41,644 nucleotides of DNA from Desulfobacterales bacterium (GTDB taxonomy: Bacteria; Desulfobacterota; Desulfobacteria; Desulfobacterales; UBA11574): assembly GCA_032126435.1 (NCBI GenBank), contig JAQBBE010000052.1, positions 1 through 41,644 of the forward strand, read 5' to 3'. Positions within the stretch are counted from its first letter, which is position 1. The number at the start of each line of letters is the position of its first letter. The notes below the pieces were generated by a model. The model did no database searches. It had not been told where the DNA came from and was given only the letters and a program-made list of their open reading frames with translations. A program made the position numbers and the translations under genes. Positions 4,941-22,132 of this stretch are shown in pieces.

Positions 4941-5139
4941 TAAACGTCTCTGAAATTCTACAACTTCTCGAAATAACGAGTCTTTTAATGGTAATCTGTT
5001 TATGCCATCAGAATGGAATATTGGAATATTGGAATCAGGGCGGAAATAAAACCATTTTAATTGTAAAAAACTCCTTCAAACCCATCATTCCATTACTCCA
5101 TCATTCCATTATTCCAATTAGGGCGAAGCCCCTAAGTTC
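4941..5139 (+). repeat. Octamer-armed intergenic repeat element, family A, copy A2
   Basis: Starts TAAACGTCTC, ends GGGCGAAGCCC-CTAAGTTC; 5037-5119 equals the reverse complement of 11077-11158 except one A indel. Confidence 0.9.
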
Positions 5140-5180
5140 AAATCATCCGCCATCAAGGCGCAGACACACAAAGGATAACA

Positions 5181-7187
5181 ATGAAAGCGATCGTATTGGC
5201 ATACCACAACATCGGTTGTATCGGAATTGAAGCACTGCTTAAAAACGGATATGAAATTGCGGCAGTTTTTACACATAATGACAACCCAAATGAAAATATC
5301 TGGTTTAACTCGGTGGCCGAACTTGCTTCAGGTCATGGAATTCCGGTTTTCGCGCCCGAAGACATAAATCATCCTTTATGGATACAAAAAATTATTGAAT
5401 TAGATCCGGATATTCTTTTTTCATTTTACTACCGTAATATGGTCACTTCAGAAATCCTGGATATTCCTTCTTCAGGCTGTTTGAATCTGCACGGTTCTTT
5501 TTTGCCCAAATACCGCGGGCGATGCCCCATCAACTGGGTGCTGGTCAACGGGGAGACCGAAACCGGAATAACCCTTCATTACATGACTCCTCGGGCCGAT
5601 GACGGCGATATTGTATGTCAGAAAAAGATTGCGATATCCGATACGGATAACGCACACACACTTCATGAAAAAGCCGCAAAGACTGCAACCGATGTATTAA
5701 ACGAAATTCTACCGAAGTTACGGGAAGGAACGGCTCCCCGCATTCCTCAGGATCATTCTAAGGCTTCTTATTTTGGAGCCCGCAGTGCCAAGGACGGTGA
5801 AATCGACTGGAATCAAGATGCCGTTGCAATAAGGAATCTGGTGCGGGCGGTATCCCGGCCCTATCCCGGGGCTTCCAGCTATTTGGGTAACCGAAAATGT
5901 ATATTCTGGTCCGTTAGCGCGGCAAAAGGAAACAGCGAAAGGCCGGGTACTATTCTTTCTAAGGTTCCGTTAGTGATTGCCTGCGGCAAAGGAGCCATAC
6001 AGGTTGATTTTGGCCAGTTCGAAGGTGGGATATTCATGAGCGGCTTACAGCTTGCTGAAGAAATGCACCTTGTTGCGGGCATGAAATTTGGCAAACATAA
6101 AGGGAGCCGGGTTGAAACGGCAAGAAAAAAACAGGTGCTTATCCTTGGGGTTGACGGATTCATAGGCAACCATCTTACTGAACGGCTTTTAGATAGTGGA
6201 AAATATGAAGTTCACGGTATGGACTTAGGGGCACATTCCATTCAGCGTTTCGTGGGCGTTCCGGGGTTCCATTTTTCCGAAGGGGATATTTCCATCCATC
6301 GTGAATGGATAGAATATCATGTAAGAAAGTGCGATATAGTTCTTCCTCTTGTTGCCATTGCAACACCTGTTGAATACATCCGTAACCCTTTGAAGGTATT
6401 CGAACTCGATTTTGAAGAAAACCTCCACATTGTCCGCTACTGTGTCAAATACGGCAAAAGAATACTGTTCCCTTCTACCTCGGAAGTATATGGAATGTGC
6501 CATGATCCGAAATTCAATGAAGAAAACTCTCAATTAGTATTGGGACCCATCCGAAACCAGCGCTGGATTTATTCCTGCTGCAAGCAATTACTTGACAGGG
6601 TCATCTGGGCCTACGGCGCAAAAGAGGGTTTGCAGTTTACTCTGTTCAGGCCTTTTAACTGGATCGGCCCACGGCTTGACAGCCTGGCATCCGCCCGCAT
6701 CGGTAGTTCTCGTGCTATTACCCAGTTGATTTTAAATCTTACCGATGGGACTCCGATCCAGCTCGTTGACGGCGGCAGCCAAAAACGATGTTTTACTGAT
6801 GTAAAAGATGGTGTTGAATGTCTGTACAGGATTATTGAAAACCCGAACGGTTGTTGCGACGGCAAGATTATCAACATCGGAAATCCAGACAATGAAGCGA
6901 GCATCAAGGACCTGGCCGACATGCTAGTGGAAAAATTTCATCAACATCCTTTGTGCAAAGAATTCCCTCCCTTTGCAGGTATCAGCAAGGTGGAAAGCAA
7001 AACTTTTTACGGGTCAGGTTATGAGGATGTAAAACACAGAAAACCTTGTATCGATAATGCCCGACGTCTTTTAAACTGGGAACCCAAGATTAATATCGAG
7101 CAATCGGTTGAAGAAACCCTTGATTTCTTTCTAAAAGAAGCGATCCGGACGGGAGAATGCGGCACCACCCGACCCTGTGACGTGTAG
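5181..7187 (+). CDS. arnA: Bifunctional UDP-glucuronate decarboxylase / UDP-L-Ara4N formyltransferase
   Basis: N-terminal formyltransferase ([18 protein letters not shown]) plus C-terminal SDR ([22 protein letters not shown]); AAGGA RBS. Confidence 0.97.
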
Positions 7188-7263
7188 TTAAAACGATGAT
7201 CAAAAATTTGGCAAAGCAATATCTTAAACTCGATTCCCGGAACCCGGATAAACCGGAAAAAAA

Positions 7264-7466
7264 CAAATTACAAACAAATCGCAATAGCCGAAATTCAAAA
7301 TTCGAAACCTTATGATCTTGAAGAAAGTAAACGAATTGAAAAAGATATCTTCATCAATACCGGAAAAATCGAAATAGTTTAGGTCATTGGTATTTGGAAT
7401 TTGAGATTTGTTTGTAATTTGATGCTTGTGATTTGGGATTTATTTGTAATTTGGTGCTTGGAATTT
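7264..7466 (+). repeat. Heptamer-armed cassette, family B, copy B1
   Basis: Perfect 17-bp inverted repeat CAAATTACAAACAAATC (7264-7280) / GATTTGTTTGTAATTTG (7405-7421); degenerate ATTTGGN-type heptamer tandem running to the arnD ATG. Confidence 0.85.
7284..7377 (+). pseudogene. Internally deleted remnant of a probable four-helix-bundle (23S rRNA-IVP-like) gene
   Basis: 7284-7328 reads (ATA)AEIQNSKPYDLEES; after a frame change 7333-7377 reads ELKKISSSIPEKSK*; these resemble my recollection of the N- and C-termini of that family, not search-verified. Confidence 0.6.
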
Positions 7467-8360
7467 ATGAAGACAGGTTTACGTATTGACGTTGACACAT
7501 TCAGGGGCACCAAAATTGGTGTGCCGAATTTGTGCAGGATTCTTGCCGGTTACTCTATACGAGCATCATTCTTTTTTTCCGTTGGTCCGGATAATATGGG
7601 GCGTCACCTGTGGCGTCTGCTGCGCCCCTCTTTTTTTAAAAAAATGCTGCGCTCAAAAGCGGCAAGCTTGTATGGCTGGGATATTCTGCTTAAAGGGACT
7701 TTTCTTCCGGGGCCGGTTATCGGAAAAAGACTGGCCGATATAATACGTTCTGCCGCGAACCAGGGTCACGAAATCGGTTTGCACGCCTGGGATCATCACG
7801 CCTGGCAGGTCCACATCGACAGGATGGATCAGCAGTCCATAAGGCATCACCTTCGCAAAGGGGTTGATCAGCTTGCACCTATTCTCGGCAAGATTCCGGT
7901 TTGCTCGGCTTCCCCAGCATGGAAATGTAATAATCTTGTACTAATGGAAAAACAGAAATTCCCTTTTTTTTATAACAGTGATTGCAGGGGCGAAAGTATT
8001 TTTCTCCCATTGGTTGATGGGAAGAAACTCTCGCAACCCCAGATTCCCGTGACATTGCCTACCTATGATGAAGTAATCGGAAGAAAAGGAGTGTCGGATA
8101 GTAATTACAATGAATATATATTGTCGCTGATGAAACCGGAGAAATTGAATGTCCTGACTATTCATGCAGAAGTCGAGGGGATATTCTGTGCCGAAATGTT
8201 CGAACACTTTTTAAAGACAGCCCTGTCAAGAAAAATATCCTTTATCCCTCTGGGAACATTTCTACAGGAACAAATACCCACAGACTATGCTACCCTTGTG
8301 CCTGGAAAGATTCGCGGCCGAGAAGGATGGGTTGCATACCAGACACAAGATAATACTTGA
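7467..8360 (+). CDS. arnD: 4-deoxy-4-formamido-L-arabinose-phosphoundecaprenol deformylase
   Basis: MKTGLRIDVDTFRGT, SVGPDNMGRHLWRL, GLHAWDH, TIHAEVEG; the ORF-track extension 7401-7466 is repeat-derived. Confidence 0.95.
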   Translation: MKTGLRIDVDTFRGTKIGVPNLCRILAGYSIRASFFFSVGPDNMGRHLWRLLRPSFFKKMLRSKAASLYGWDILLKGTFLPGPVIGKRLADIIRSAANQGHEIGLHAWDHHAWQVHIDRMDQQSIRHHLRKGVDQLAPILGKIPVCSASPAWKCNNLVLMEKQKFPFFYNSDCRGESIFLPLVDGKKLSQPQIPVTLPTYDEVIGRKGVSDSNYNEYILSLMKPEKLNVLTIHAEVEGIFCAEMFEHFLKTALSRKISFIPLGTFLQEQIPTDYATLVPGKIRGREGWVAYQTQDNT

Positions 8361-8457: not shown

Positions 8458-8844
8458 CTAAACGACATTTGCTACAGGCTCGGTATGGATACAATATCAG
8501 TGGGAAATCTCTGTGGATTTACAATTTAAGAAAAAGGTTGATTTTAAGATAGAATACGGAGATGTGAATGCCATAGCCGGTTTGCTCAAAAAAATCGCAA
8601 CCAGGCAGGGCATTGGTAATATTCTGGCTCGGGGATTAGACATGCGGCCCAGATCTGGAACATGGAAGACATGGCTGTGCATGTTAAAGGACTTGAACTG
8701 CCCGGTTATGATCCCAGAGTTCTTAAGGGATGCGGGCTTGCCTTTGCCACCGCCGACAGTGGCGCATGCCATTTAAGGGCGCCGTTCCATAATCCTGAGA
8801 TAAAAGGCGTGATCGCCCCGGAGATTATCAAAAGGAAAGCCGAA
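8458..8844 (+). pseudogene. Aldehyde:ferredoxin oxidoreductase (AOR family) internal fragment, disrupted
   Basis: Three pieces broken by a stop and frameshifts: LNDICYRLGMDTISVGNLCGFTI*, IEYGDVNAIAGLLKKIATRQGIGNILARG, RHAAQIWNMEDMAVHVKGLELPGYDPRVLKGCGLAFATADSGACHLRA. Confidence 0.85.
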
Positions 8845-8964
8845 AATAAAATTTTAGAAAAAATTCTTTCTCAGAAAAAACCGTTGTGTCCCCACTACGG
8901 TAAGGAAATGAACATATGGGAGGTTCCCCCTTTTTCCTTCTGTGACGATCTCGGCTTGGGTAAA
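8845..8964 (+). pseudogene. Fragment of an unrelated small zinc-ribbon-like protein fused in frame to the AOR fragment
   Basis: KILEKILSQKKPLCPHYGKEMNIWEVPPFSFCDDLGLG; CPHY looks like a decayed CxxC; not AOR-like. Confidence 0.45.
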
Positions 8965-9118
8965 ATTTTCACGTTGACTTGGGGCGTCCATACTTCTCGC
9001 CGTTGTGGGCAGCTTGTCAGCTGTCCAATTCTGCTATCCTGCAGAATTGCCCTTGGCCTTGAACGAAATTGAGCATTTTTCAAGGTCTCAATGGTGCTGA
9101 AAAAAGGCTTGATACTCA

Positions 9119-9808
9119 ATGAGCACAACACACACTAAAACTTATAATTCATATCATTTTGGATCACCATCAAATATAGCCGACCAGCAACTGAAACAAC
9201 TCATTAGATTCTTTAATTTACCAAAAAATAGCGTTAATTCAGCCCTCGGCGGAAGAACCTCCATTACAGTTACACAGCTTAACGGCATAGGATCTGTAGT
9301 TATTAAATATTATAGACGGGGAGGAGTCATTCGATATCTGATCAAAAAACGGTATCTTAAATGTGGAAAAACGCGTTGCCAGATTGAATATGAACTGTTG
9401 CAGAAGGTCAGAAGTTTAGGCATAAATGCCCCTGAGCCGGTTGCCTTTGCTTATAGAGGCCGCCTGTTCTATCAATGTTGGCTGGTAACCCGAGAGATCC
9501 AAGATCATCAAACACTTGTCCAAATAAGTCGTTCAAATGAAGAACAGGCCCGTATGGCAATGAAAGCAGTCGTCAAGCAAGTTTCAATGCTCATAAAAAA
9601 TAAAATTTTACATGCCGATTTACATCCCGGCAATGTAATAGTGGACAATCAAAACCAAGTTTACATTCTTGATTTTGACAAGGGGTGTGTTTTTCACGGA
9701 GATAAAAATGCGCTGAGAACTCGATACCTGCGTCGCTGGAATCGGGCAATACAAAAGCATGGGCTACCGGAGATGCTTAGTGAAGTTAATGCGTTAAACT
9801 CTCTTTAA
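9119..9808 (+). CDS. Kdo kinase-like LPS kinase (Kdo/WaaP family)
   Basis: VIKYYRRGG, HADLHPGNVIV, ILDFDKG, KdkA-type motifs. Confidence 0.85.
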   Translation: MSTTHTKTYNSYHFGSPSNIADQQLKQLIRFFNLPKNSVNSALGGRTSITVTQLNGIGSVVIKYYRRGGVIRYLIKKRYLKCGKTRCQIEYELLQKVRSLGINAPEPVAFAYRGRLFYQCWLVTREIQDHQTLVQISRSNEEQARMAMKAVVKQVSMLIKNKILHADLHPGNVIVDNQNQVYILDFDKGCVFHGDKNALRTRYLRRWNRAIQKHGLPEMLSEVNALNSL

Positions 9809-9905: not shown

Positions 9906-10979
9906 ATGTTTATTAGTTCCGTTATGGATACACCCACTTTTAAAATATTCTCTTCAGCACCATCAATCCTCATCATTCTGATGGGGTCTATAGGAGATGT
10001 GGCGCGAGGTCTGTGCCTGGTGTCACATATTAAAAACAATCTGCCGGGAAGCAGGGTAACATGGCTTGTAGAGCCAACGTGCTCGGAAGTGGTCTGTCTA
10101 CACCCACGCATTGACAAAATGATCGTTTTTAACAGACCCAGACATATGTTAGGAATACGAGATCTGTATAAAGACTTATCCCGAGAACACTTCGACATCA
10201 CTCTGGATCTTCAGCGTCACTTAAAGAGCGGCTTTTTCTCGTTTCTTTCCGGAGCGAAAAGACGAATCGGCTTTAATCGCCGTAATTCAGGGGAATTTAA
10301 CTGGATCTTTAATAACGAATACATCCCCTATGTCAGCGATGAGCTTGAGTTGCCCAAATTGCATCATTATCTTAAATTTACAGAATACCTGGGGTTATCT
10401 GAGCCCGCATCCTTGGACTTCGGTTTTTCCTGCCTTGATGAAAAATCTAATCTGCCGGATATTGTTGCTAAAATAAGTAAACCCTTTATCGCTGTTGTAA
10501 TGGGATCATCCTGGGAATCTAAAGACTGGTTCTTTGAAGGATACTATCGACTGGTAAAAAATATTCTTTCTTCAATGAAAGAGGCGGTTGTACTGCTTGG
10601 TGACGGCTCACAAGTATCATCTGCAACAAAACTGTGCCAAAAAGTTGGCTCACATGAATTAATCAATCTTGTGGGAAAAACGTCGATTCCTGAACTTGTG
10701 GCCGTGCTTAAAGCCGCTGCTGCCGGTTTAGGACCGGATTCGGGGCCGGGTCATTTGGCAGCAGCGGTGGGAACTCCCTATGTGTCTCTTTTCGGTCCAA
10801 CACCTCCGAAACGGGCAGCGCCTTATAAATGTGAACACCTTGTCGTTCAATCCGGGGTAAGCTGTGTTTCCTGTTATAAAAAGAAATGCCCTGACCTCGA
10901 CAGATTATGTATGCAGCGTATCAGCGTTGAATCGGTCCAGGAAAAACTTTCTATAGCACTTGGAACTGTTGGTGACTAA
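9906..10979 (+). CDS. Glycosyltransferase family 9 (LPS heptosyltransferase-like)
   Basis: MGSIGDV, TWLVE, LDLQ, DSGPGHLAAAVGTPYVSLFGPT, C-terminal Cys cluster; start may be 9924. Confidence 0.9.
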   Translation: MFISSVMDTPTFKIFSSAPSILIILMGSIGDVARGLCLVSHIKNNLPGSRVTWLVEPTCSEVVCLHPRIDKMIVFNRPRHMLGIRDLYKDLSREHFDITLDLQRHLKSGFFSFLSGAKRRIGFNRRNSGEFNWIFNNEYIPYVSDELELPKLHHYLKFTEYLGLSEPASLDFGFSCLDEKSNLPDIVAKISKPFIAVVMGSSWESKDWFFEGYYRLVKNILSSMKEAVVLLGDGSQVSSATKLCQKVGSHELINLVGKTSIPELVAVLKAAAAGLGPDSGPGHLAAAVGTPYVSLFGPTPPKRAAPYKCEHLVVQSGVSCVSCYKKKCPDLDRLCMQRISVESVQEKLSIALGTVGD

Positions 10980-11273: not shown

Positions 11274-12431
11274 TTAGCCTGTATTTCTCTTTATAAGTCC
11301 TTGGAGCCGACTTTTAATGAAGGATTTAAAAGCAATATCGTTTTCTCCAAAGGAAATCTCTATCCCGATGATAACCAAGGTGATGGGCCATTTTATTTTA
11401 TGAGCAATCCGGACATAATCTTTTTCTGTGGTAAAAATAAATTCTGCCGATAGATCCGTTGCTGATTTCACAATTTCATCAAGTTCTCTATCCGAATACG
11501 GGTGATGGTCCGGAAATCCTGAAAAATCTTCTATTTTACATTTAAAACTCTCAATTGTTCGGCGAAAATCATCATTGCTTGCTATCCCGGAAAAAGCAAA
11601 GACCCTCTTATTTCTAAAGATATCAAAATCGTACTTGGATGAAATAGTTGGCAGATCTCGTGATTGGGAACGGTTTCCGGTAACAATTTTATAAATATAT
11701 GGGGTATGAAATGAATGAAAAATCGGCGTTCTCGGAAAATGTTTTTTTATTTGATCCAAAGACGCCGGCTTCTCGATATTCGATCGGGTTAAAATCACAA
11801 CGTCTCCCCGCGACAACGCAGAAGCGGTTTCTCTTAGGGTGCCCCTAGGGAAAAGATAAGTATTGCCCAACGGGTTATTACTGTCTAAAAGCACCAGGTC
11901 TAAATCTCGATGGAGCTTTAAATGTTGAAATGCATCATCAAGCAGTAAAACATCCGGTTTAAATTCCTGTATCGCCAATATTCCGGCCTTAAAACGGTCT
12001 TTCCCAACAATAACAGGAACCGTTTTTAGTCTCTGGGCAACCATAAATGGCTCATCGCCTGCTGTATCCGGCCCCATACAAATTTTACGCCCGTCACATA
12101 CCACGCCACCAATTTTCTCTGCTTGGCCTTTATATCCCCTGCTGATAATTGCAACACCATACCCGAGATGCTTAATTAGCTCCGCGACATAAATCGTCAT
12201 AGGTGTTTTCCCCGACCCGCCAACCGTAAGGTTACCAATGGAAATAACCGGGCAAGGTAGTCTTTTTGACTGCAACAGACCTTTTTTGTAAAAAGTTTCC
12301 CTCAGCTTAACCGAACCGCCATAAGCAATTGATATTGCGAAGAGAAAGGATTCGAGGAACAGGGACCTGCTTTCGCCCCTATTAGTCATAATCGTTTCGA
12401 CTTTTTTCTTAACGTTTTCCAGAGTCGCCAT
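11274..12431 (-). CDS. lpxK: Tetraacyldisaccharide 4'-kinase
   Basis: SIGNLTVGGSGKTP, SRGY, GDEP, LDDAFQH, FPDHH, TTEKD; ATG at 12431 chosen. Confidence 0.96.
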   Translation of the reverse strand: MATLENVKKKVETIMTNRGESRSLFLESFLFAISIAYGGSVKLRETFYKKGLLQSKRLPCPVISIGNLTVGGSGKTPMTIYVAELIKHLGYGVAIISRGYKGQAEKIGGVVCDGRKICMGPDTAGDEPFMVAQRLKTVPVIVGKDRFKAGILAIQEFKPDVLLLDDAFQHLKLHRDLDLVLLDSNNPLGNTYLFPRGTLRETASALSRGDVVILTRSNIEKPASLDQIKKHFPRTPIFHSFHTPYIYKIVTGNRSQSRDLPTISSKYDFDIFRNKRVFAFSGIASNDDFRRTIESFKCKIEDFSGFPDHHPYSDRELDEIVKSATDLSAEFIFTTEKDYVRIAHKIKWPITLVIIGIEISFGENDIAFKSFIKSRLQGLIKRNTG

Positions 12432-12681
12432 TAATTTATCTCTATCTAACCCGAACACAAAAATTACCCTTTCATTGCCCGTAAAGAGCAAAACAACCGG
12501 CAACAAACTATATTAAGATGTTACTTTTCTATCACATATAATGTCTCCTATCAAGGAGGTATAAAACCAAAATCCGCCGCCTAATTTTTAATCAAGTCGT
12601 TTTATGCTACACAGAGTTTTTTTGAATAAACCAATAGAAAAGAAGGTAAAATCCTTGGTGGCAATCCCTCCAAAATAGCGC

Positions 12682-12710
12682 TTGACTTTAGTTACGGCTA
12701 AAAGTAACGT
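12682..12710 (+). promoter_or_regulatory. Putative sigma70 promoter for the methyltransferase-kinase pair
   Basis: TTGACT (12682-12687), 17-bp spacer, TAACGT (12705-12710). Confidence 0.45.
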
Positions 12711-12774
12711 TTTATTGGAGTGGGTTTCAATTATTATATAATGCCAGTACGAAAAACAAAGGAGAATAAAATCA

Positions 12775-13347
12775 ATGCCAACGTCTTTGGGGTTGCAAAA
12801 ATTCTTTGACGATATTCGATACCACAGGGAACGCTTCCGTCAATTCATCGGAATCTGTTTAGTCATCCTTTTCAGTGTTGCAGGTAAACCTGAGAAACTC
12901 CTGTTCTCTGCCGGTTCTGTGCTGGTTATCCTGGGTGTTGCATCACGAATGTGGGCATCGGGGCATATTAAAAAGAACAAGGCCCTTGCTACCGACGGTC
13001 CTTACTCCTATGTCAGACACCCCCTCTATGTGGGCAACCTTACTTTAGGATTTGGTTTTGCTCTTGCCTCTAGCCTATGGTGGAGCCTTCCCCTCTTTAT
13101 ATTGATGGTGCTTCTCTTTTACCCTCATGCCATCCGCCGTGAGGATGAAAAACTTAATCGTATGTTTAAAGAGAATTGGGAGCAATGGCGCAAAGAGACG
13201 CGAGCGCTTATTCCTCGCTTTACCCCCTACCAACCGCGACAACGCGGCGGCTGGTCATTCATGCAAAGCTTGCGGCAAAACGGTGAGCCCGTTATCGCCT
13301 TGTTTTTACTGTTTTTGCTTTACATCCTTTCCATGGGGCTCCAATGA
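12775..13347 (+). CDS. ICMT/PEMT-family integral membrane methyltransferase
   Basis: LATDGPYSYVRHPLYVG and REDEKL motifs, several TM segments, AAAGGAG RBS. Confidence 0.88.
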   Translation: MPTSLGLQKFFDDIRYHRERFRQFIGICLVILFSVAGKPEKLLFSAGSVLVILGVASRMWASGHIKKNKALATDGPYSYVRHPLYVGNLTLGFGFALASSLWWSLPLFILMVLLFYPHAIRREDEKLNRMFKENWEQWRKETRALIPRFTPYQPRQRGGWSFMQSLRQNGEPVIALFLLFLLYILSMGLQ

Positions 13348-13363
13348 GCCCACAATTACACCG

Positions 13364-14053
13364 ATGATCAGAGAAATAGAAAACATTACTGAAAGCGAAC
13401 TCCTTCAGTGGATCAGGTTGGGCGTCAAAACTGAGACGAACATTCTTAGCCACGGCTATCAGGGCTGTATCTACCTGTACGAATCCAAAGGCCAGCGTCT
13501 AGTCCTCAAGGCGCCTATAGGGTGGGGGTTAGGCAGATTCATCCGCACAGCGATGCTGCGTAGGGAATACAAAATCTACTCAAGGCTATCTGAAATACAG
13601 AATATACCTCGCTGTTACGGTCTCATAGATGGTCGCTATCTAGTGCTTGAATATATTGTCGGCATTCCAATAAAAAGTGCTCAACTTACAAATCGAAGTG
13701 AGTTTTTTGAAGATCTCTTGAATTTGATCAAAGAGCTGCACAAAACTGGAGTCGCACATACAGACCTTAAGAAAAAAGACAACCTTCTCGTTGTAAAAGG
13801 GAAGATGCCTTATATAATAGACTTTGGTGCTGCTGTTATCAGGAAGTCGGGTTTTGCGCCTTTAAACCACTGTCTGTATAATATTGCAAGTAAATTTGAT
13901 TTCAATGCCTGGGTGAAGTTGAAATATGACGGATATAAAAACGTGTCTGAAAAGGATAGAGAATACTACAACCGGACAGTCGTTGAAAAGATATCATGCT
14001 GGATCAAGGATATTTATTTGATACTGAAAAAATTATTGGTGTTGAACCGTTAG
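13364..14053 (+). CDS. RIO/Kdo-like protein-kinase-fold enzyme
   Basis: LSHGYQGCIY G-loop, VLK, LVLEY, HTDLKKKDNLLV, IIDFG; ATG at 13364 avoids overlap with the upstream gene. Confidence 0.82.
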   Translation: MIREIENITESELLQWIRLGVKTETNILSHGYQGCIYLYESKGQRLVLKAPIGWGLGRFIRTAMLRREYKIYSRLSEIQNIPRCYGLIDGRYLVLEYIVGIPIKSAQLTNRSEFFEDLLNLIKELHKTGVAHTDLKKKDNLLVVKGKMPYIIDFGAAVIRKSGFAPLNHCLYNIASKFDFNAWVKLKYDGYKNVSEKDREYYNRTVVEKISCWIKDIYLILKKLLVLNR

Positions 14054-14056
14054 GGT

Positions 14057-15133
14057 TTACTCAGCATTCAGCAAAGCAAGCAGACCGAAACATAATAAAA
14101 TAAAATTTGCAATCCATGCGGCAACAAAAGGAGTAAGCATCTCTCCATATCCAAGCGACAGGCAAAAGCTATAAAAAACCCAGTAAATAAAGACTATTCC
14201 GATACCGTAACATATACTAACGGACAGACTTTCCTTTCTCTTATCTCGACCCCCAACGCCTGTCCCCACCAAGCACATGATGAAACAGACAAAAGGCAAT
14301 GAGAGCTTAGCATACAGGTCTACTTTGTAGACAGAAGCATCGTATCCTTCGTTTTCAATATTCTTGATATACTCTGATAGCTCCAACAGATTCATTTCCT
14401 CCGACTTTTTAACCACCCTCTTTATATCCTCTGGCAAAAAATGGAACGGTTCCTCCCGCTCTTCATGGAATGCAACACGGTGGTTGTTGTTTTTTTTATC
14501 AAATTTTTGCTCAATAATTTCATAGAAAATCCATCGTCCTTTTTCGAAGACACCTTTTTTTGCGTCAATCCTTCGGGTTAATCTGAATTCATCATCGAAA
14601 AAATTAAGAGTGACCCCCAAAATAGTACTGTTTACAGGATTATAATATGTAATGTAGTATATGGCATGGTTATCCTTAATCCATATATTCTTTCCCTTAG
14701 ATACAACAGAAGATCTTTTCTTAACCTCTAAATTCCAGATCCTGTTGACCTTGCTTATTGTAATCGGCACAATCAACTCTGATAATAAAAAAATGAGAAT
14801 GCTTAAGAATAGTCCAATTGATACAACTGGCTTTAAAAGGTAATAGATACTTACACCGCTGCTTTTTAACGCGATGATCTCATTGTTCTTATTCATCAAG
14901 CCGAAAACAACAAGAATAGCCAGAAGAATGCCGACCGGCGCGAATTGTGCAACTATCGACGGTATCTTGAGATAAAAAAACCTTATAATTTTTGAAAATG
15001 GAAGGCCGGCTTCCATAAAATTATCTATTTTTTCAAAAAAATCGACCGCCAAATATATGCTGACCACAGTTGCAAGAAGAATACAAAAGTATTTTAATAT
15101 CTCCTTTGTCACATATTTTTCGATTAAGTACAT
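14057..15133 (-). CDS. lptG: LPS export ABC transporter permease LptG
   Basis: YjgP/YjgQ pattern (NNEIIALKSSGVS), downstream of lptF. Confidence 0.92.
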   Translation of the reverse strand: MYLIEKYVTKEILKYFCILLATVVSIYLAVDFFEKIDNFMEAGLPFSKIIRFFYLKIPSIVAQFAPVGILLAILVVFGLMNKNNEIIALKSSGVSIYYLLKPVVSIGLFLSILIFLLSELIVPITISKVNRIWNLEVKKRSSVVSKGKNIWIKDNHAIYYITYYNPVNSTILGVTLNFFDDEFRLTRRIDAKKGVFEKGRWIFYEIIEQKFDKKNNNHRVAFHEEREEPFHFLPEDIKRVVKKSEEMNLLELSEYIKNIENEGYDASVYKVDLYAKLSLPFVCFIMCLVGTGVGGRDKRKESLSVSICYGIGIVFIYWVFYSFCLSLGYGEMLTPFVAAWIANFILLCFGLLALLNAE

Positions 15134-15224
15134 ACCCCTAACAATTCGAAAATTTGGAATTTAGAAATCGGATGAAAATTTACTTAAAATGCCGCACCCC
15201 TCATTTTCTTTACTCTTCTATACG

Positions 15225-16409
15225 TTAAGCCCCTTCATATCCGGCCAATCGAGATTTAATCATTTTTATCAGATTCGCAATAGCATTGACCCTCAATTGA
15301 CGGTCATTGGCCGTTTTAACCAGAAGATACAGGCCTAAACCGCCCAGTACAATATTTGGAACCCACATTCCCATGATCGGAGGATAAGCGCCTGTTTCAC
15401 CAAAAACCAACCCTGCAGATAACAACATGTAATAAATCAAAAAGAAAATGAGGCCCAGCACCAGCCCAAAGGATCTTTTTGCAGATTTGGACTGTATACC
15501 TAATGGAACAGCCAGAAGTCCGAGGGCAAAACATGCAACTGGAATTGAAAACTTCTTATACAACTCCATTAACGCGTTATAATAATTAGCATCCTTTATA
15601 GTGCTATTATTCAAATATTGCCGCAATTCAGCAAGACCCATCTCCTTTCTGTGTTTAGTCCCTCGTTTCAATCTTGAAGCCGCATTTTTAATATCAAGGC
15701 GCACCTCGTAAGTTTCAAAATCAATGGAATTGGCCAGCCTATTCTTTAGATTAACTTGATATATGACGCCATTGTAAAGCAATAAATTATAAATGTGTTT
15801 GTCGGGTTCGCTGAAAAGCTTTCCCTTTGGTGCAACAACAGTGCTGACAATGTTTTGGGTCCTTTTATCTTCGATAAAAATATCCTGAAGTTCTTTGTTC
15901 TTAGGATTTATTTTGTTTACATAAAGCATAACGTCTTCAAAACTGTCATTGAATGTTCTATCTTTGAGTCCTATTTCGAGATTGGAAGAAACAACGCGGT
16001 ACGTCAATTCTTTGACCGATAGTCTTCCCCACGGCATTCCATAAGCTGTCATAAAAAATGTAAGCAAGCACCCTATTAGGCAAAATAAAACCACAGGCGG
16101 AAGTAACCCGTATATGCTCATGCCGCTGGTTTTTAATGCAACAATCTCATTATCACCGGATAATCGCAGGAAGGTAAGTAGAACCGCCATCATGATCGAC
16201 ATGGGTATAACAAAAGTGAGGAAATAAGGAGTGGAATACACAAATATTAGCAAGACGGTAAACACACCAACGCTGTAATTAATAACCATGTCGGCAATTT
16301 TAAGCATCTCAGCCATCAAAAATACAAAAGTAAAAAACATCAGATTGATGACAAAAGGAGGAATCATCTCTTTGAACACATATCTATATATAATGGAGTT
16401 GATTTTCAT
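15225..16409 (-). CDS. lptF: LPS export ABC transporter permease LptF
   Basis: MKINSIIYRYVFKEMIPPF, RLSGDNEIVALKTSG; start set at 16409. Confidence 0.92.
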   Translation of the reverse strand: MKINSIIYRYVFKEMIPPFVINLMFFTFVFLMAEMLKIADMVINYSVGVFTVLLIFVYSTPYFLTFVIPMSIMMAVLLTFLRLSGDNEIVALKTSGMSIYGLLPPVVLFCLIGCLLTFFMTAYGMPWGRLSVKELTYRVVSSNLEIGLKDRTFNDSFEDVMLYVNKINPKNKELQDIFIEDKRTQNIVSTVVAPKGKLFSEPDKHIYNLLLYNGVIYQVNLKNRLANSIDFETYEVRLDIKNAASRLKRGTKHRKEMGLAELRQYLNNSTIKDANYYNALMELYKKFSIPVACFALGLLAVPLGIQSKSAKRSFGLVLGLIFFLIYYMLLSAGLVFGETGAYPPIMGMWVPNIVLGGLGLYLLVKTANDRQLRVNAIANLIKMIKSRLAGYEGA

Positions 16410-16500
16410 AAAAATTTTGGGATTTTTTTTGCGATAATGAGATGTTACATAAGCATACCAATGGACATGGCGAGATTTTTTTTCAAAATTGCGATTTAAA

Positions 16501-18297
16501 TCATATGGAACAAGGCTTGCCGGCATGCTTTTTTGCGCTGAATTTTGATACCGCTTTTTCTGAATTGCCAGTGTTATATTGCATCTGGTAAAGCTTGTTA
16601 AATTCCCCCTTAAGTGCAATTAACTCATCATGTTTTCCCTCTTCCACAACTCGTCCGTTTACAATAACAATGATCCGGTGAGCATAGCTGATGGTAGATA
16701 GTCTGTGGGCAATGACAAATGTTGTTCGCCCTTTCATCAGATTCTCAAGGGCCTTTTGAACAAGCATCTCGGATTCTGTATCCAGTGAGGAGGTTGCTTC
16801 ATCAAGGATTAATATGGGAGCATCTTTCAGCAAAGCCCGGGCAATACAGATACGCTGCTTTTCTCCACCTGACAGCCGTCCGCCCAGTTCCCCGATGGTC
16901 GTATCAAATTTGTCCGGAAAACTTTGTATAAAATCATACGCATATGCAGCCTTTGCAGCGCGCTCAATTTCATCGTTAGATGCATTCTGGTTGCCATAAG
17001 CGATATTATTTCTGATAGTATCGTTGAAAAGGATTGGATCCTGAGTAACAATTGCAATCTGCTCACGGAGTGACGATATGGAACAATCCCGGATGTCCGT
17101 TCCGTCAATCAGGATAGCTCCTTTGCTGATGTCATAAAATCTCGGTATCAAATTAACAAGTGATGTCTTGCCGCCCCCGCTCATACCTACCAGAGCCAGA
17201 ATCTCTCCAGCTTTGGCATCGATGTTAATATCTTTTAAAACCATCTCTTTTTCATATTTGAAAAAGACGTTTTTAAATGTAACACTGTGAGGTCCCGGTT
17301 TTATTATAACAGGGTTCTTTTGTTCTCTGACTTCCGATTCCCTCTCAATGATATCAAAAACCCTGTCAGTAGCGGCAAGACCCTGTTGAATGGCATTATT
17401 AAGCTTACTTAAATTTTTAATCGGCGCATACAACAATAAAACAGCAGCAAGAAAGGAAATAAAGGTTCCCGTTGTATAATCTCCCGCAATTACTTTTGAT
17501 CCTCCATACCAGATGATTACGGCAGCCCCAACACCTCCCAAGAATAAATTGATGGGGCTCGATATCACTCTGGCCTTAACTTCCTTCATCTCAAGCCTTA
17601 AAAGCCTACGTGTCTTTTCAAAAAAACGCTTTTTTTCATAGGGCTCCATTCCGAAAGCCTTTACAATTTTGTTGCCTGCAAAGGTTTCGTGCAGAAAAGA
17701 ACTCATATCAGCCATGGCTTCCTGGCACCCTGTACTTACCCTGCGTACCTTCCTCCCAAATATTACAATAGGAAAAATGGAAATAGGCAGGACGATAAAT
17801 GCAATAAGTGCCAGTTCCCATATCTGGTAAAAAATGACCAAAGTCAGGCCCACTATGGTAAAACAGTCCCTGAGTGATCCTGTAACAGCAATAGAAACCA
17901 TTGCTTTAATAATATTAACATCATTGGTAACACGCGACATTAAAACGCCAGTCTTTTCTTCCTGAAAAAAAGAAAGGGAAAGATCTTGAATTCGGTTGTA
18001 TAGAATATTTCTAAGACGCCGTATGATGTTTTGCCCAACATAGCTCATTAAATATTCCTGCCCGTACATTGCGACGCTGCGGAAAAAATATACGATGATT
18101 ATTGCTGCGGGAATTAGTTTTAACATCCTGACATCTTTATTAATAAACACATCATCAATTACTGGTTTTAACAAATACGCCGCGGCTGCTGTTCCCGCAG
18201 ACATAATCAGCATGCACCCCATTGCCATAAACAGGATAAGCCAGCTGTCTTTAACCATGCCTATTAAACGTCTATGCCTGTCTTTTATTTTTATCAT
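16501..18297 (-). CDS. msbA: Lipid A export ABC transporter MsbA
   Basis: TM domain plus GMSGGGKT, LSGGEKQR, LDEATS; next to lpxB. Confidence 0.92.
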   Translation of the reverse strand: MIKIKDRHRRLIGMVKDSWLILFMAMGCMLIMSAGTAAAAYLLKPVIDDVFINKDVRMLKLIPAAIIIVYFFRSVAMYGQEYLMSYVGQNIIRRLRNILYNRIQDLSLSFFQEEKTGVLMSRVTNDVNIIKAMVSIAVTGSLRDCFTIVGLTLVIFYQIWELALIAFIVLPISIFPIVIFGRKVRRVSTGCQEAMADMSSFLHETFAGNKIVKAFGMEPYEKKRFFEKTRRLLRLEMKEVKARVISSPINLFLGGVGAAVIIWYGGSKVIAGDYTTGTFISFLAAVLLLYAPIKNLSKLNNAIQQGLAATDRVFDIIERESEVREQKNPVIIKPGPHSVTFKNVFFKYEKEMVLKDINIDAKAGEILALVGMSGGGKTSLVNLIPRFYDISKGAILIDGTDIRDCSISSLREQIAIVTQDPILFNDTIRNNIAYGNQNASNDEIERAAKAAYAYDFIQSFPDKFDTTIGELGGRLSGGEKQRICIARALLKDAPILILDEATSSLDTESEMLVQKALENLMKGRTTFVIAHRLSTISYAHRIIVIVNGRVVEEGKHDELIALKGEFNKLYQMQYNTGNSEKAVSKFSAKKHAGKPCSI

Positions 18298-18307
18298 TGG
18301 GTTTCGG

Positions 18308-19450
18308 TTATTCCAGCATATTCAAAGCAATATCGGCAACACGCTTTGACGCACCCGGGCCGCCGAGTACATCTTTTACTTGGAGCAATTCGAGTCTTAA
18401 CTTTTCAAGGCCGGGAGCATCACTTAACATATTGAAGACCGTGTCTGCTATCCGGATAGGAGATGCTTGGTCCTGAACCAATTCGGGAACAATCTTTTTG
18501 CCGGTAATGAGGTTGACCAGGCCGATATGTTTGACCTGTATCATTGCTCTTCCAAGCCAGTAGCTTATGGGAGATACTTTGTAAATAATTACCATGGGTG
18601 TTCCGGAAATTGCGGATTCAAGAGTAACCGTGCCAGATGCGGCAATAACAACGTTGCTTTTTTCAAAGATTTTTCTGACATGGCCGGATACGATCTCAAG
18701 CTCGGCAACCCCCTTGTGTTTGTTAACGATTTCTTCCACGGTTTTTCTTTTCACATCAGGGGCAAGTGAAACCATGAATTTTACGTTCTTCATCCTTTTG
18801 AATAAAATTTGGGCAGCACCAAGCATTATGGGAAGGTGTCTATCAATTTCCCGATCGCGGGATCCCGGGAAAAGACCTATGACAGAAATATCATTTTCAG
18901 GCTTTTGAAAAGTTTTTGTTCCATAATCAAGGTTCGTATCAAGTAAAGGATGCCCAACAAATGTTACCGGAATTTTATGTTTTTTATAGAAGTCTTCTTC
19001 AAAAGGCAGGATAACCGCCACATGATCTACAAGCTTTCCGATCTTCTTGACACGGCCGGGTCTCCAGGCCCAAATCTGAGGGCTGATATAATAAAGTACT
19101 GGTGTTCCAAGTTTTTTGGCGAAGGATGCCAGATGAAGATTAAAATCCGGGAAATCTATAAGAATCAGAAGATCGGGACGCAGTGTATTAAGGGCCTTTT
19201 TGGCAACGCTCAGGCCTTTTAGAATATTTGGCATTTTTGAAAAAACCTCGATTATTCCCACAACGGCAAGCTCAGAAGCATCCATCAATATTTTGACTCC
19301 GGCTTCCTTAAGTGCCCGGCCGCCTATACCGCAGAAAAACAGCCCTTTGTTCCTTTTTCGCATGGCGCTGACAAGTTTTGACCCGTGTAGATCACCGGAA
19401 GTTTCACCGGCAATAATCATGACACATTTTTGATCTGAAGACCCATCCAT
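18308..19450 (-). CDS. lpxB: Lipid-A-disaccharide synthase
   Basis: IAGETSGDLHG, IDFPDFN, SPQIWAWR, FVGHPL, PGSR. Confidence 0.97.
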   Translation of the reverse strand: MDGSSDQKCVMIIAGETSGDLHGSKLVSAMRKRNKGLFFCGIGGRALKEAGVKILMDASELAVVGIIEVFSKMPNILKGLSVAKKALNTLRPDLLILIDFPDFNLHLASFAKKLGTPVLYYISPQIWAWRPGRVKKIGKLVDHVAVILPFEEDFYKKHKIPVTFVGHPLLDTNLDYGTKTFQKPENDISVIGLFPGSRDREIDRHLPIMLGAAQILFKRMKNVKFMVSLAPDVKRKTVEEIVNKHKGVAELEIVSGHVRKIFEKSNVVIAASGTVTLESAISGTPMVIIYKVSPISYWLGRAMIQVKHIGLVNLITGKKIVPELVQDQASPIRIADTVFNMLSDAPGLEKLRLELLQVKDVLGGPGASKRVADIALNMLE

Positions 19451-19456
19451 AGATTT

Positions 19457-20413
19457 CTAACGCAAAAACCGTTGAACGTTATCCTTGATCTGATCCATAA
19501 TATCCAAGGCAACCTCCAGAGCATCACGCCCCATTTGAGCAGTTACTTCAGGAGATTCACGCATTGCAACCGCTTTTACAAAGGATTTTAATTCATTCTC
19601 CAGTGCGTCACCGGCTTCAAAGCTAACCTGTTTGATATCCATGCCCGGTATAAGACTACATTCAGCTTCGCTATCCTTCTGGATAATGACAATTCCCTTG
19701 TTAGAAAAATCGACAGAAACATAGGCATCTTTTTGAAACAGCCTGATTTTTCTTTCATTTTTGGTCGATATTCGACTGGCTGTCACGTTTGCCACGCATC
19801 CGCTTTTAAATTCAAGACGTGCGTTTGCGATATCGACATGCTCGGATATTACAGGAACTCCTGAAGCTCGGATATCGCTAATTTCCGACCCGACAAGGCT
19901 CAAAATAAGATCAATATCATGGATCATAAGGTCGAGCACGACACTCACATCGGTACAGCGCCCCGTAAAAATACTCAACCGGTGTGATTCTATGAACATC
20001 GGTTTTTTAACAATATCCTGCAGAGCAACGCTAACCGGATTAAATCGTTCGAGATGCCCGACTTGGATGATAAGACCCCGTGATTCTGCAAACCGAATCA
20101 GTTCATCCGCCTCTTCGGTCGTCTCTGTCATAGGTTTTTCAATCAGGATATCGATATTATTTTGTAAAAAATCCTTGGCAACTTCAAAATGAGCCGGTGT
20201 CGGAACAGCGATACTAACAGCGTCTACTTTCCCAAAAAGGTCCTTATGATTAAGATATGCCCTTGTATTAAACTTTTGGGCAACATCTTCGGCTTGGGAT
20301 TTATCGATATCAACAACGCCGGCAAGTTCGACTTCATTCATTTGGCTGTATTTTTCAGCGTGAAATTTTCCAAGATAGCCGACACCGACAACACCAACAC
20401 GCAATTTTTTCAT
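19457..20413 (-). CDS. Gfo/Idh/MocA oxidoreductase, GnnA-like (possible UDP-GlcNAc 3-dehydrogenase)
   Basis: GVGYLGKFH, EKP, VGHLERFNP, DLMIHD; position between lpxI and lpxB. Confidence 0.85.
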   Translation of the reverse strand: MKKLRVGVVGVGYLGKFHAEKYSQMNEVELAGVVDIDKSQAEDVAQKFNTRAYLNHKDLFGKVDAVSIAVPTPAHFEVAKDFLQNNIDILIEKPMTETTEEADELIRFAESRGLIIQVGHLERFNPVSVALQDIVKKPMFIESHRLSIFTGRCTDVSVVLDLMIHDIDLILSLVGSEISDIRASGVPVISEHVDIANARLEFKSGCVANVTASRISTKNERKIRLFQKDAYVSVDFSNKGIVIIQKDSEAECSLIPGMDIKQVSFEAGDALENELKSFVKAVAMRESPEVTAQMGRDALEVALDIMDQIKDNVQRFLR

Positions 20414-20417
20414 GGCT

Positions 20418-21221
20418 TTACTTTTCCATCGCAACAATAGTTATTCCGAACTCGTCCGCCAGATTGATCATCTCCTGACGGTCAAAAACAATCGCCTTTC
20501 CGGCTTCAACTACCAGTACCTTTGCTCCTGCTTCCTCCATGGTTTTAATTGTCTGCGCACCAACAGCAGGAATATCGAATCTTATGTCCTGGTTTGGCTT
20601 GCAAACCTTAACAACTACCGCATCACCTCTGCCCAGCTTGCCACCCCGCATTATCGTGGCATCTGTTCCATCTATAGCCTCCACTGCCAAAACAGATCCG
20701 CCGCCGACCACCACACACTGGCCAATATCAAGACGCCCGATCTCTTTCGCCATTTTCCAACCCAGTTCGATATCCTTTTTTTCGGATCGTGACGGTTTCT
20801 GTTTTGTCCAGCAGCCCGGCTGCGCCAGAAGGTCCGGGAGTAAAAATGTCGAGGCCTGTACCTCTACCCCCTCTTTTTCAAGGACCCTTGCAAATCTCCT
20901 GAGCAGCCCGTCGTCATGAGTATCCCGCATGCCCGCAATGAGCGAAATTGCTTTGGTGTCAGGCCTCACATCTGAAAACATCCTTGTCTTTGTTATTCCA
21001 CCAATGAGAACAGCCTGGCTGATATGGTTTTTTTTAAAAAACTTGAGAATACGCTTGATCTGCCCAATATGAATCCATTCAATTGCATCAACATGATCTT
21101 TCAGTCCGGGATCTGTCTCATTATTATGAGCAACCGCATAAACAGCAAACCCCTTGGCTTTTGCAGCTTTTGAAAAAATGATGGGGAACTGTCCATTCCC
21201 GGCGATAAGTCCTATCCGCAT
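20418..21221 (-). CDS. lpxI: UDP-2,3-diacylglucosamine diphosphatase LpxI
   Basis: IGLIAGNGQFP, DIGQCVVV, EAIDGTD, KPNQDIRFDIP. Confidence 0.93.
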   Translation of the reverse strand: MRIGLIAGNGQFPIIFSKAAKAKGFAVYAVAHNNETDPGLKDHVDAIEWIHIGQIKRILKFFKKNHISQAVLIGGITKTRMFSDVRPDTKAISLIAGMRDTHDDGLLRRFARVLEKEGVEVQASTFLLPDLLAQPGCWTKQKPSRSEKKDIELGWKMAKEIGRLDIGQCVVVGGGSVLAVEAIDGTDATIMRGGKLGRGDAVVVKVCKPNQDIRFDIPAVGAQTIKTMEEAGAKVLVVEAGKAIVFDRQEMINLADEFGITIVAMEK

Positions 21222-21361
21222 GGCAGTATTCTCGAAACTCCTGACACGAAGGAATGTTAACAATACCAATTTGAAAAAATATTGAGTATGGTTTATCTGG
21301 AAGAAACCGTTAACGTCTTTTGCGAAAGAGATTAAAGATATTCGATGGTGCTACCTTGGTT

Positions 21362-22132
21362 CTACCTTGTTATTCCCCGTTGAGAAGATTTAATAAACTT
21401 GATCAGATTAACCACCTCGGGGACCTGATCCACCTCCGCCTTAACCCTTTCAATGGCTTCGTTCAGTGTCAGCCCGATACGAAAAAGAATCCGGTACGTT
21501 TTTTTTAACAAAGATAACGTATCTTGTGAAAACCCCTGTCGTTTCAGTCCTACACTGTTTAATCCGTACAGTTTTGCCCGGTCTCCCGCTGCGATTACAT
21601 ATGGCGGGATGTCTTTAACCACAGCCGATTTTCCACCAATATATGCGTAATTTCCAACTCTTACAAATTGATGAATTGCCACCAGCCCGCCGATGGTTAC
21701 AAAGTCTCCGATGCTGATATGACCCGCCAATGTTGCATTATTTGCAAGGAGAACTCTCCGTCCGGTTTTGCAGTCATGGGCGATATGGGCATAAGCCATC
21801 AGGAAATTCTCTTCTCCAATTTCAGTAATACCTCCGCCAAATCCCGTTCCTCTATTAATTGTAACAAACTCGCGCACAACCGTACCGCGCCCGATCTTAA
21901 GGAATGTTTTTTCGCCTTGAAATTTTATTGCCTGGGGAACGGCACCGATGGAAGCATACTGAAAGATATGGCAATCCGAACCGATAGTAACATACGGCTG
22001 AATAACAACATGTGGACCGATGATCGTTCCGGATCCAATCTGAACATCTGCTTCGATAATCGAATGCGGACCGATTTCAACATTAGAATCTATATCGGCC
22101 TTCGGGTCGATAACTGCTGTAGGATGTATCAT
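21362..22132 (-). CDS. lpxA: UDP-N-acetylglucosamine acyltransferase
   Basis: MIHPTAVI, hexapeptide repeats, HIAHDC, HQF, GLNSVGLKR. Confidence 0.97.
   Translation of the reverse strand: MIHPTAVIDPKADIDSNVEIGPHSIIEADVQIGSGTIIGPHVVIQPYVTIGSDCHIFQYASIGAVPQAIKFQGEKTFLKIGRGTVVREFVTINRGTGFGGGITEIGEENFLMAYAHIAHDCKTGRRVLLANNATLAGHISIGDFVTIGGLVAIHQFVRVGNYAYIGGKSAVVKDIPPYVIAAGDRAKLYGLNSVGLKRQGFSQDTLSLLKKTYRILFRIGLTLNEAIERVKAEVDQVPEVVNLIKFIKSSQRGITR

Follow-up and report, generated by a model that had tools for sequence, protein, structure and literature searches.

A methyltransferase gene and a small kinase gene form a tight pair within the lipid A cluster of a Desulfobacterales bacterium (assembly GCA_032126435.1, contig JAQBBE010000052.1); the window, that is, the whole stretch of DNA analyzed, comprises 41,644 nt. 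The methyltransferase open reading frame (ORF; 12775-13347, plus strand) encodes 190 aa and the kinase ORF (13364-14053, plus strand) 229 aa, with a spacer of exactly 16 nt (13348-13363) from the stop codon of the first to the start codon of the second. The pair lies between lpxK and lptG, both on the minus strand, being divergent from the former and convergent with the latter. The genes of the window run from the operon for 4-amino-4-deoxy-L-arabinose (Ara4N) through a gene resembling kinases of 3-deoxy-D-manno-oct-2-ulosonic acid (Kdo), a GT9 gene, lpxK, the pair, lptG, lptF, msbA and lpxB to a GFO/IDH-type oxidoreductase gene, lpxI, lpxA, fabZ, lpxD, skp, bamA and lolCD-like genes, and the wider window is an envelope-biogenesis region. 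An earlier note on this DNA had described a tightly spaced unit of a membrane methyltransferase and a kinase, placed on the opposite strand within the lipid A cluster, and had proposed that the two enzymes modify lipopolysaccharide (LPS). Both the spacing and the strand are as described, and the proteins pass the Pfam cut-offs of PEMT/ICMT and Pkinase, respectively. Both genes are real; compared with the two closest loci the pair has a dN/dS of 0.16-0.50, 421 kinase homologues were found at E<=1e-3, and in alignments of homologues the mean column identity is 69% (kinases) and 77% (methyltransferases).

Pairing of the methyltransferase with the kinase is obligate among the related loci, in which the neighboring genes were called by a simple longest-ORF rule. 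A methyltransferase gene lies directly upstream of the kinase gene, on the same strand, at 24 of 25 public loci with a close kinase relative (56-94% identity), and the 25th (L017) is uninformative, since a run of N occupies the methyltransferase position. Two further genomes of the same order, with kinases of 59% and 53% identity, are also paired (2/2). In the Acidiferrobacterales, the gammaproteobacterial order of locus L023, a strong kinase match (E<=2e-77) was found in 19 of 61 sampled genomes, and in the 18 genomes other than that of L023 the methyltransferase is immediately upstream of the kinase without exception (18/18). Overall, the arrangement is present in 44/44 informative loci, a raw count that is inflated by kinship among them. 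At 13 of 15 related loci the measured spacer is 16-17 nt long, and over the whole set of 15 its range is 12-17 nt; it is C-rich without a Shine-Dalgarno-like run. The pairwise distances of the two proteins also correlate (r = 0.90 for 19 close pairs; 0/2000 permutations reach 0.90), as is expected for genes inherited as a unit, which is no proof of contact between them. Among more distant kinases the situation is looser: at 14 loci examined the methyltransferase is adjacent in 4 and not in 10, and of these unpaired kinases 5/10 adjoin fur/feoA and one belongs to an LPS core cluster (L044). Where a genome's kinase is unpaired, a related methyltransferase occurs elsewhere in that genome in 4 of 5 cases, twice beside PAP2 phosphatase genes, in the orders GT2-ArnT-like-PAP2-PEMT-two-component system (L056) and PAP2-PEMT (L057).

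Two side observations concern the pairing. The complete chromosome behind L005 bears a second copy of the cassette (L058, 6123-7011) next to sfsA/DUF123, with an intact methyltransferase of 75% identity and a kinase that matches over residues 1-100 only and looks decayed. Separately, L040, L041, L043, L050 and L051 represent a paralogous group of small kinases (31-36% identity) beside fur/feoA-type genes and without an adjacent methyltransferase, with dUTPase and rlmN-like genes upstream in L040 and L043.

Over its C-terminal SAM-binding core the methyltransferase scores above the Pfam gathering cut-offs of PEMT (PF04191; 41.4 bits, cut-off 25, residues 59-133) and of ICMT (PF04140; 32.6 bits, cut-off 24, residues 65-128). 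Its top NCBIfam model is LmtA_Leptospira (TIGR04571; 49.2 bits, E 5.8e-13), which aligns residues 71-183 with profile positions 88-199 of 252, and the same model ranks best or second best for all 7 other methyltransferases tested, including those of distant pairs. Judged by these profile scores, the protein is a member of the ICMT/PEMT superfamily and not an equivalog of LmtA. The generic ICMT core is invariant in 20/20 homologues (SGH, GPY, VRHP.Y.GN, ED and WE.W; in the window protein SGH62-64, GPY75-77, VRHP80-83 and E123-D124), as is a block specific to the family, G.WSF.QSL..N.EP, that precedes the last helix (WSF160-162, QSL164-166, N169, EP171-172). The methyltransferase is a polytopic membrane protein with four to five hydrophobic segments (windows >1.5 at about 24-43, 41-61, 91-120 and 168-190), and from the positive-inside rule we infer that its conserved Lys/Arg-rich motif loops face the cytoplasm. 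Its AlphaFold2 model is helical throughout with a predicted local distance difference test (pLDDT) score of 66, too poor for a fold search. A sequence search of solved structures returned AtTam46, a sterol reductase and ICMT at E values from 2e-4 to 0.1. No PADLOC defence model matched the methyltransferase, and a search for longer proteins returned only a tandem double-ICMT protein (P0273). It is the sole PEMT-family gene of its genome. As a separate observation, locus L013 holds a second, divergent PEMT-family gene (2805-3401; 30% identity to the window methyltransferase), which is encoded on the other strand some 2 kb upstream of the pair.

The kinase is recognized by Pfam as Pkinase (PF00069; 34.5 bits, cut-off 31.7) and ABC1 (24.4 bits, cut-off 22.9), and NCBIfam gives weak matches below cut-off to PRK12274 (43 bits), Bud32 (37 bits), PRK09188 and KdkA (PRK01723; 25.7 bits, cut-off 142). 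RIO1 (PF01163) gave no Pfam match at E<=0.01, and some homologues carry a precomputed PF01163 label. Ten residues (G31, Q33, K49, E68, H132, D134, K136, N140, D153 and G155) and the block F178-D-x-N-A...K185-L-K-Y188 are invariant in 40/40 homologues. Among them are the Gly-rich loop (G31), the VAIK Lys (K49), the helix-C Glu (E68), the catalytic Asp and Asn (D134, N140) and the DFG Asp (D153), and the kinase therefore looks catalytically competent. The earlier note rightly called its catalytic loop HTDLKKKDN atypical, the Asn being one residue further from the Asp than usual; as H132, D134, K136 and N140 are invariant in 40/40 kinases, the odd loop is a trait of the family and not an error, and the distant relatives P0233, P0137 and P0152 show the same spacing. 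According to its AlphaFold2 model (pLDDT 87.5), the kinase has a RIO-type fold, a kinase core without activation loop: against about 48,000 PDB representatives the best structural matches are Rio2 (1tqi; Z 16.7, root-mean-square deviation 3.4 over 176 residues), Rio1 (1zp9; Z 15.2), RIOK3 (14.4) and RIOK1 (14.0), with generic kinases at about 13. Foldseek against the PDB placed kinase domains of class III lanthipeptide synthetases on top (8sap, E 1.4e-8), followed by generic kinases with TM-scores of 0.46-0.55, and a sequence search of solved structures returned only Aurora-type kinases at E of about 1e-4. The protein is basic (37 K+R against 24 D+E) and has no hydrophobic segment (maximum 19-residue hydropathy 1.42), and its C-terminal helix (residues 204-227) is amphipathic, with a charge of +3 and a hydrophobic moment of 1.34.

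Annotation of this kinase family is generic. A profile of the 40 kinases searched against 1.84 billion sequences found 3777 representatives at E<=1e-3, 486 at E<=1e-10 and 80 at E<=1e-30; among the homologues listed, the source names give only a generic 'Ser/Thr protein kinase', 'Bud32' or 'RIO-like' kinase, and the Protein Atlas lists only 'protein kinase domain-containing protein' clusters. One relative of 589 aa (P0233) has a GT9 heptosyltransferase domain (residues 76-296) fused to a kinase whose loop spacing and C-terminal motif match those of the family. Searching proteins of 402-2000 aa with the kinase yielded no fusion to a methyltransferase. P0244 and P0245, which look like PEMT-kinase fusions, were not counted, as they contain low-complexity stretches typical of frame errors; they still show PEMT/kinase adjacency, in high-GC organisms. 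A role in anti-phage defence was also rejected, the kinase receiving from PADLOC only partial matches to generic kinase domains (13-32 bits). In P0137, P0149 and P0152 the kinase bears about 200 extra residues at its C terminus, which contain repeated VRFGD..LR motifs and match no Pfam family.

The pair is an accessory, insertion-like unit in the lipid A cluster. Among 301 sampled genomes of the phylum a close kinase orthologue is present only in the window's own genome, with 30 others at 28-37% identity, and among 61 relatives close orthologues occur in 4 genomes. The kinase had no match in any of six same-genus genomes searched (0/6), and the methyltransferase profile found nothing in four of five same-genus genomes and only a 21-bit match in the fifth; both genes are thus missing together. 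A co-directional gene of 441-462 aa with a Kdo-transferase domain (PF04413; 195-199 bits), that is, waaA, fills the gap from lptG to lpxK in three of the same-genus genomes, and the PF04413 genes of the window genome lie on other contigs. In the sister genus (L045, L046) the same slot contains a kinase of 35-36% identity and, after it, a PEMT-family methyltransferase of 26-27%, both oriented like lptG and lpxK, in the order msbA-lptF-lptG-kinase-methyltransferase-lpxK, the reverse of the pair order in the window. The slot therefore has three states: waaA, a distant pair and the pair of the window. A third version of the pair, again distant (27-36% identity), was found in another family (L047, L049) in the order ArnT-like-GT2-LAB_N-methyltransferase-kinase. 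The LAB_N gene (PF07578, 'Lipid A Biosynthesis N-terminal domain'; L047 7340-7714, L049 4991-5302) encodes a small membrane protein. One of the two PF04413 genes of the window genome, on contig C102 (18227-18770), gives two abutting matches in different frames or segments and may be frameshifted or split.

The flanking genes indicate that this end of the cluster is mosaic. Along 11274-23700, identity to the same-genus genomes (L031/L032) drops from 98% for LpxD and 92% for LpxA to 74% for LpxB, 61% for LptF, 58% for LptG and 52% for LpxK, and the sister genus (L046) is closer, with 93% for KdoK, 90% for GT9, 85% for LpxK and 76% for LptG. Judging from these values, the cluster end from lpxB to arn looks as if it had been replaced by recombination or transfer. 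The composition of the pair gives no clear foreign signal against the window (G+C 48.2% in the methyltransferase, 40.6% in the kinase and 43.2% in the window), and tblastn of the pair found no PLSDB plasmid. In the kinase tree the Desulfobacterota sequences form one shallow clade (100/99) within a grade of gammaproteobacterial sequences. We claim no donor, as the approximately unbiased test does not reject gammaproteobacterial monophyly (p = 0.229).

Linkage to LPS genes was followed in a set of 27 loci of Desulfobacterota type, and within the DNA covered LPS-type neighbors were found at 22 of them. Unambiguous LPS genes (lpxK, lptF/G, lpxL-like, Kdo-kinase-like plus GT9, ArnT/ArnC-like) are present at 8/27 loci, and at L018 homologues of the Kdo-kinase-like and GT9 genes are directly upstream of the pair and co-directional with it. 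Another 14/27 have a convergent MsbA-like exporter gene, 7 of these together with a GT9 gene; among NCBIfam models the exporter scores best with MsbA (460-468 bits for the two tested, against a cut-off of 602). Six distinct LPS-linked architectures can be told apart, and for comparison 2.2% of the window genome lies within 6 kb of a match to the same query set. The earlier note had named conservation of the neighborhood as a check, and it would have taken homologues apart from LPS genes, or from each other, as refuting its proposal. At the 27 loci the linkage is well above the baseline of about 2%, whereas none of the gammaproteobacterial loci (0/10) has such neighbors, a result that in part goes against the note by its own standard; the two genes were apart from each other at none of the 44 informative loci.

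We consider it somewhat more likely than not that the substrate is LPS. More specifically, and with more doubt than conviction, we propose that a S-adenosylmethionine (SAM)-dependent membrane O-methyltransferase and a soluble RIO-fold kinase phosphorylate and then methylate lipid A or the inner core. Bacteria build lipid A, Kdo and the inner core on the inner leaflet of the cytoplasmic membrane, and MsbA then exports the product. As the cofactors SAM and ATP are found in the cytoplasm, no segment of the kinase is hydrophobic and the methyltransferase motifs are placed on the cytoplasmic side, both enzymes would be expected to work on the inner membrane from its cytoplasmic side, and in this genome the likeliest substrate would be lipid A, Kdo or inner-core LPS before MsbA flips it. 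The kinase would phosphorylate a sugar hydroxyl of lipid A or the inner core, and the methyltransferase would O-methylate the phosphate so installed, giving a methyl phosphodiester with one negative charge fewer. Such a decoration might tune charge in addition to the Ara4N pathway, whose genes lie 4-12 kb upstream. Topology, substrate, order of reactions and product are all inferred here; in favor of the proposal speak the strict pairing, its recurrence at 26-36% identity with other gene orders, the LPS linkage, the GT9-kinase fusion and LmtA as the best model. A fuller version is possible and rather doubtful: a self-contained 'phospho-methyl' writer for lipid A and inner core, undescribed and horizontally mobile, in which the RIO-fold kinase adds a phosphate and the LmtA-like enzyme caps it before MsbA export. 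The cassette would then be common to sulfate-reducing Desulfobacterota and a gammaproteobacterial order of sulfur oxidizers, with no fewer than three versions that have diverged deeply.

Several observations weigh against phosphorylation followed by methylation of LPS. The kinship with LmtA that the earlier note had suggested stands insofar as LmtA is the best NCBIfam model, but the methyltransferase stays far below the curated cut-off (49.2 against 325 bits), and its model is so poor that the topology is read from hydropathy. ICMT-family enzymes also methylate carboxylates, amines and thiols. The kinase has no match to PF06293, the Kdo/WaaP family of LPS kinases, at E<=0.01. LmtA is not known to need a kinase partner, so the role of the kinase is not dictated by the methyltransferase, and RIO kinases, the nearest folds, are ATPases or have protein substrates. 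With their shared synteny, the 14 exporter loci are not independent and count as one architecture. No LPS neighbor was found at 5/27 loci (L021, L023, L024, L036 and L037, the stretch of L024 being only 3.6 kb long), and at L036 a UbiA prenyltransferase gene, a radical-SAM gene and a class I methyltransferase gene are directly upstream of the pair. All ten loci examined from the gammaproteobacterial order lack an LPS gene within about 4 kb, without exception; their neighbors are rpe, a HAD phosphatase gene, trpE/G, clpB, genes for PlsC-type acyltransferases (4 loci), copD and a Na/H exchanger gene. This is the order in which the close family is commonest.

One alternative, which we regard as unlikely, is that the two enzymes make independent LPS decorations and are merely inherited together, the methyltransferase methylating an existing 1- or 4'-phosphate as LmtA does and the kinase acting on Kdo or heptose like KdkA/WaaP. 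The rank of LmtA among the NCBIfam models agrees with it, as do family methyltransferases that stand in lipid A modification clusters with no kinase next to them (L056, L057) and kinases of the wider family that lie without a methyltransferase in an LPS core cluster (L044) or are fused to GT9 (P0233). Independence leaves unexplained, however, the 44/44 adjacency, the spacer of 12-17 nt and the joint presence and absence, as well as the recurrence of the pair at 26-36% identity with reversed gene order.

We give a similarly low probability to an envelope target other than LPS, such as a phospholipid head group, a polyprenyl-phosphate-linked intermediate, a quinone-like prenyl lipid or a lipidated protein, with the LPS context in Desulfobacterota as a landing site. 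This would fit the 10/10 gammaproteobacterial and 5/27 other loci without LPS neighbors, the UbiA gene at L036 and the PlsC-type acyltransferase genes within 4 kb at 4/10 gammaproteobacterial loci, and the Pfam names PEMT and ICMT themselves refer to phospholipid and prenylcysteine substrates. Yet the four acyltransferase loci are related through clpB synteny rather than independent, and a landing site would have to accommodate six LPS-linked architectures against a baseline of about 2%, two distant versions of the pair that lie within lipid A operons and the existence of a GT9-kinase fusion.

Still less probable, in our view, is a kinase that works as a RIO-type ATPase or protein kinase docking on the membrane enzyme and gating it, methylation being the sole chemical change to the substrate. 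Rio2 and Rio1 are indeed its best structural matches (Z 16.7 and 15.2), it lacks a substrate-binding C-lobe, it is basic, its amphipathic end helix could sit on a membrane or a partner, and wider-family members stand beside fur/feoA without a methyltransferase neighbor (L040, L041, L043, L050, L051). Against such gating, the kinase has a Lys of Ser/Thr-kinase type two residues past the catalytic Asp, its invariant F178-D-x-N-A...K-L-K-Y188 motif resembles what may be a dedicated substrate site, and the GT9 fusion suggests a sugar acceptor. Finally, a pair acting on ribosomally synthesized and post-translationally modified peptides, with the kinase phosphorylating peptide Ser/Thr as in class III/IV lanthipeptide synthetases and the methyltransferase methylating a carboxyl, is very improbable: the lanthipeptide synthetase domains on top of the Foldseek list (8sap, E 1.4e-8) and a weak NCBIfam match to lanthi_synth_III (28 bits) are offset by a neighborhood scan that found no lyase/cyclase domain or precursor-like gene and by the generic kinases (TM-scores 0.46-0.55) in the rest of that list.

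Phosphorylation and methylation of LPS by the pair would have precedents in part. According to a review, LmtA is an ICMT-like enzyme that methylates a lipid A phosphate with SAM in Leptospira (PMC4402001). Like the window enzyme, this lipid A Kdo2 1-phosphate O-methyltransferase of Leptospira interrogans is a small polytopic membrane methyltransferase of ICMT/Ste14 type, and the match of the window protein to the LmtA profile extends beyond the generic ICMT core into its C-terminal region (residues 71-183). The link to lipid A genes applies to the window enzyme at part of its loci (22/27, against 0/10 in the gammaproteobacterial order). Unlike LmtA, the window enzyme has 190 aa against a 252-position profile, is always paired with a kinase, has an activity that is predicted only, and belongs to a pair found in Desulfobacterota and a gammaproteobacterial order and not in spirochaetes. 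WbdD of E. coli O9a offers a functional model, since its kinase and methyltransferase act sequentially at the cytoplasmic membrane, phosphorylating a sugar and then methylating the phosphate at the O-antigen terminus; WbdD combines in a single polypeptide a soluble 'bacterial methyltransferase domain', a eukaryotic-type kinase domain and a coiled coil (PMC3482155). The pair differs from it in that two genes encode the two enzymes, the methyltransferase being of membrane ICMT type and the kinase a RIO-fold protein of 229 aa, and in a context of lipid A and core genes, not of O-antigen polymerization.

On the kinase side, KdkA/WaaP enzymes (PF06293) are likewise small and of kinase fold, and by their family description phosphorylate Kdo or heptose. 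The window kinase gives a weak KdkA match (25.7 bits) and has a relative fused to GT9, but it has a one-residue insertion in the loop and lacks a PF06293 match at E<=0.01. The Kdo-kinase-like protein of the genome itself (9119-9808; the only PF06293 gene, matched at 9224-9745) is encoded by a separate gene and forms a far outgroup, on a tree branch of 5.1 changes per column. The closest solved folds, Rio1 and Rio2, are minimal kinases without activation segment or substrate-binding lobe. RIO kinases have a role in ribosomes. Unlike them, the window kinase has Lys and not Ser two residues past the catalytic Asp, and its partner and context are genes for membrane lipids. Among open-access papers and preprints we found none on a pairing of an ICMT-like methyltransferase with a small kinase, and the earlier note likewise knew of no characterized system with this two-gene composition. 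The pair may represent an uncharacterized two-gene form of phosphate/methyl tailoring of LPS. If so, phosphate methylation would extend to the lipid A or core of environmental bacteria, a bacterial RIO-fold kinase would have its first lipid-directed role, and a charge-masking route would be added beside Ara4N.

The features of the window that bear on the pair and its expression are collected in Table 1.

Table 1. Coordinates of features around the methyltransferase-kinase pair
Feature	Position	Strand	Details
Ara4N operon (arnT, arnB, arnC, arnA, arnD)	1042-8360		
Kdo-kinase-like gene	9119-9808	+	Pfam Kdo, 68 bits
GT9 heptosyltransferase-like gene	9906-10979	+	Glyco_transf_9, 129 bits
lpxK (left flank)	11274-12506	-	Pfam LpxK, 292 bits; TIGR00682, 223 bits
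Divergent intergenic region, lpxK (-)/pair (+)	12507-12774		
TTGACT	12682-12687		
Inverted repeat GTTAC-N8-GTAAC	12691-12708		
Candidate promoter TTGGAG-N16-TATAAT	12715-12742		Read by eye
Shine-Dalgarno sequence AAGGAG	12759-12764		10 nt ahead of ATG
Methyltransferase-kinase spacer	13348-13363	+	16 nt, C-rich, without Shine-Dalgarno-like purine run
Catalytic loop HTDLKKKDN (residues 132-140)	13757-13783	+	Asn 6 residues past catalytic Asp (usual, 5)
lptG (right flank)	14057-15133	-	LptG TIGR04408, 299 bits

The earlier note had also assigned the pair a promoter of its own. Being divergent from lpxK, the pair should have a separate promoter, a point for which orientation is the only basis; a sigma-70 scan of 12400-14300 found 5 sites against 4.5 +/- 1.9 in shuffled sequences, which is no excess. 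The candidate promoter and the Shine-Dalgarno sequence of Table 1 fall in a block of about 130 nt at the end of the intergenic region that is conserved in the two closest loci (L001, L003). A riboswitch or RNA leader was sought in 12300-14200, where no Rfam family matched. At least 82% of the sampled words of the locus are present in 14 DNA runs from sediment, marine-sediment and aquatic metagenomes. In one metatranscriptomic library contigs cover 12329-13279 and 13250-13649, the latter across the methyltransferase-kinase junction; these contigs do not prove transcription, as DNA carry-over is possible, and the uncovered kinase part (13650-13948) is no evidence of absence.

A few minor observations concern the neighboring genes. 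The stop codons of the kinase gene and lptG are 3 nt apart on opposite strands (14051-14059), which leaves no space for terminators, and contigs from two other RNA libraries (13949-14170 and 13960-14110) bridge the ends of both genes; the convergent transcripts may overlap. Between arnD and the Kdo-kinase-like gene, an ORF of 136 aa (8662-9072) matches the C-terminal domain of aldehyde:ferredoxin oxidoreductase (55.9 bits) over positions 198-243 only of 385; on the evidence of this partial match it looks like a gene remnant, and it may mark a rearrangement joint. The lptF ORF (15225-16619, with a TTG start at 16619) overlaps msbA (16501-18297) by 119 nt, and as the LptF profile match begins only at residue 76-79, the true start of lptF is probably further downstream.

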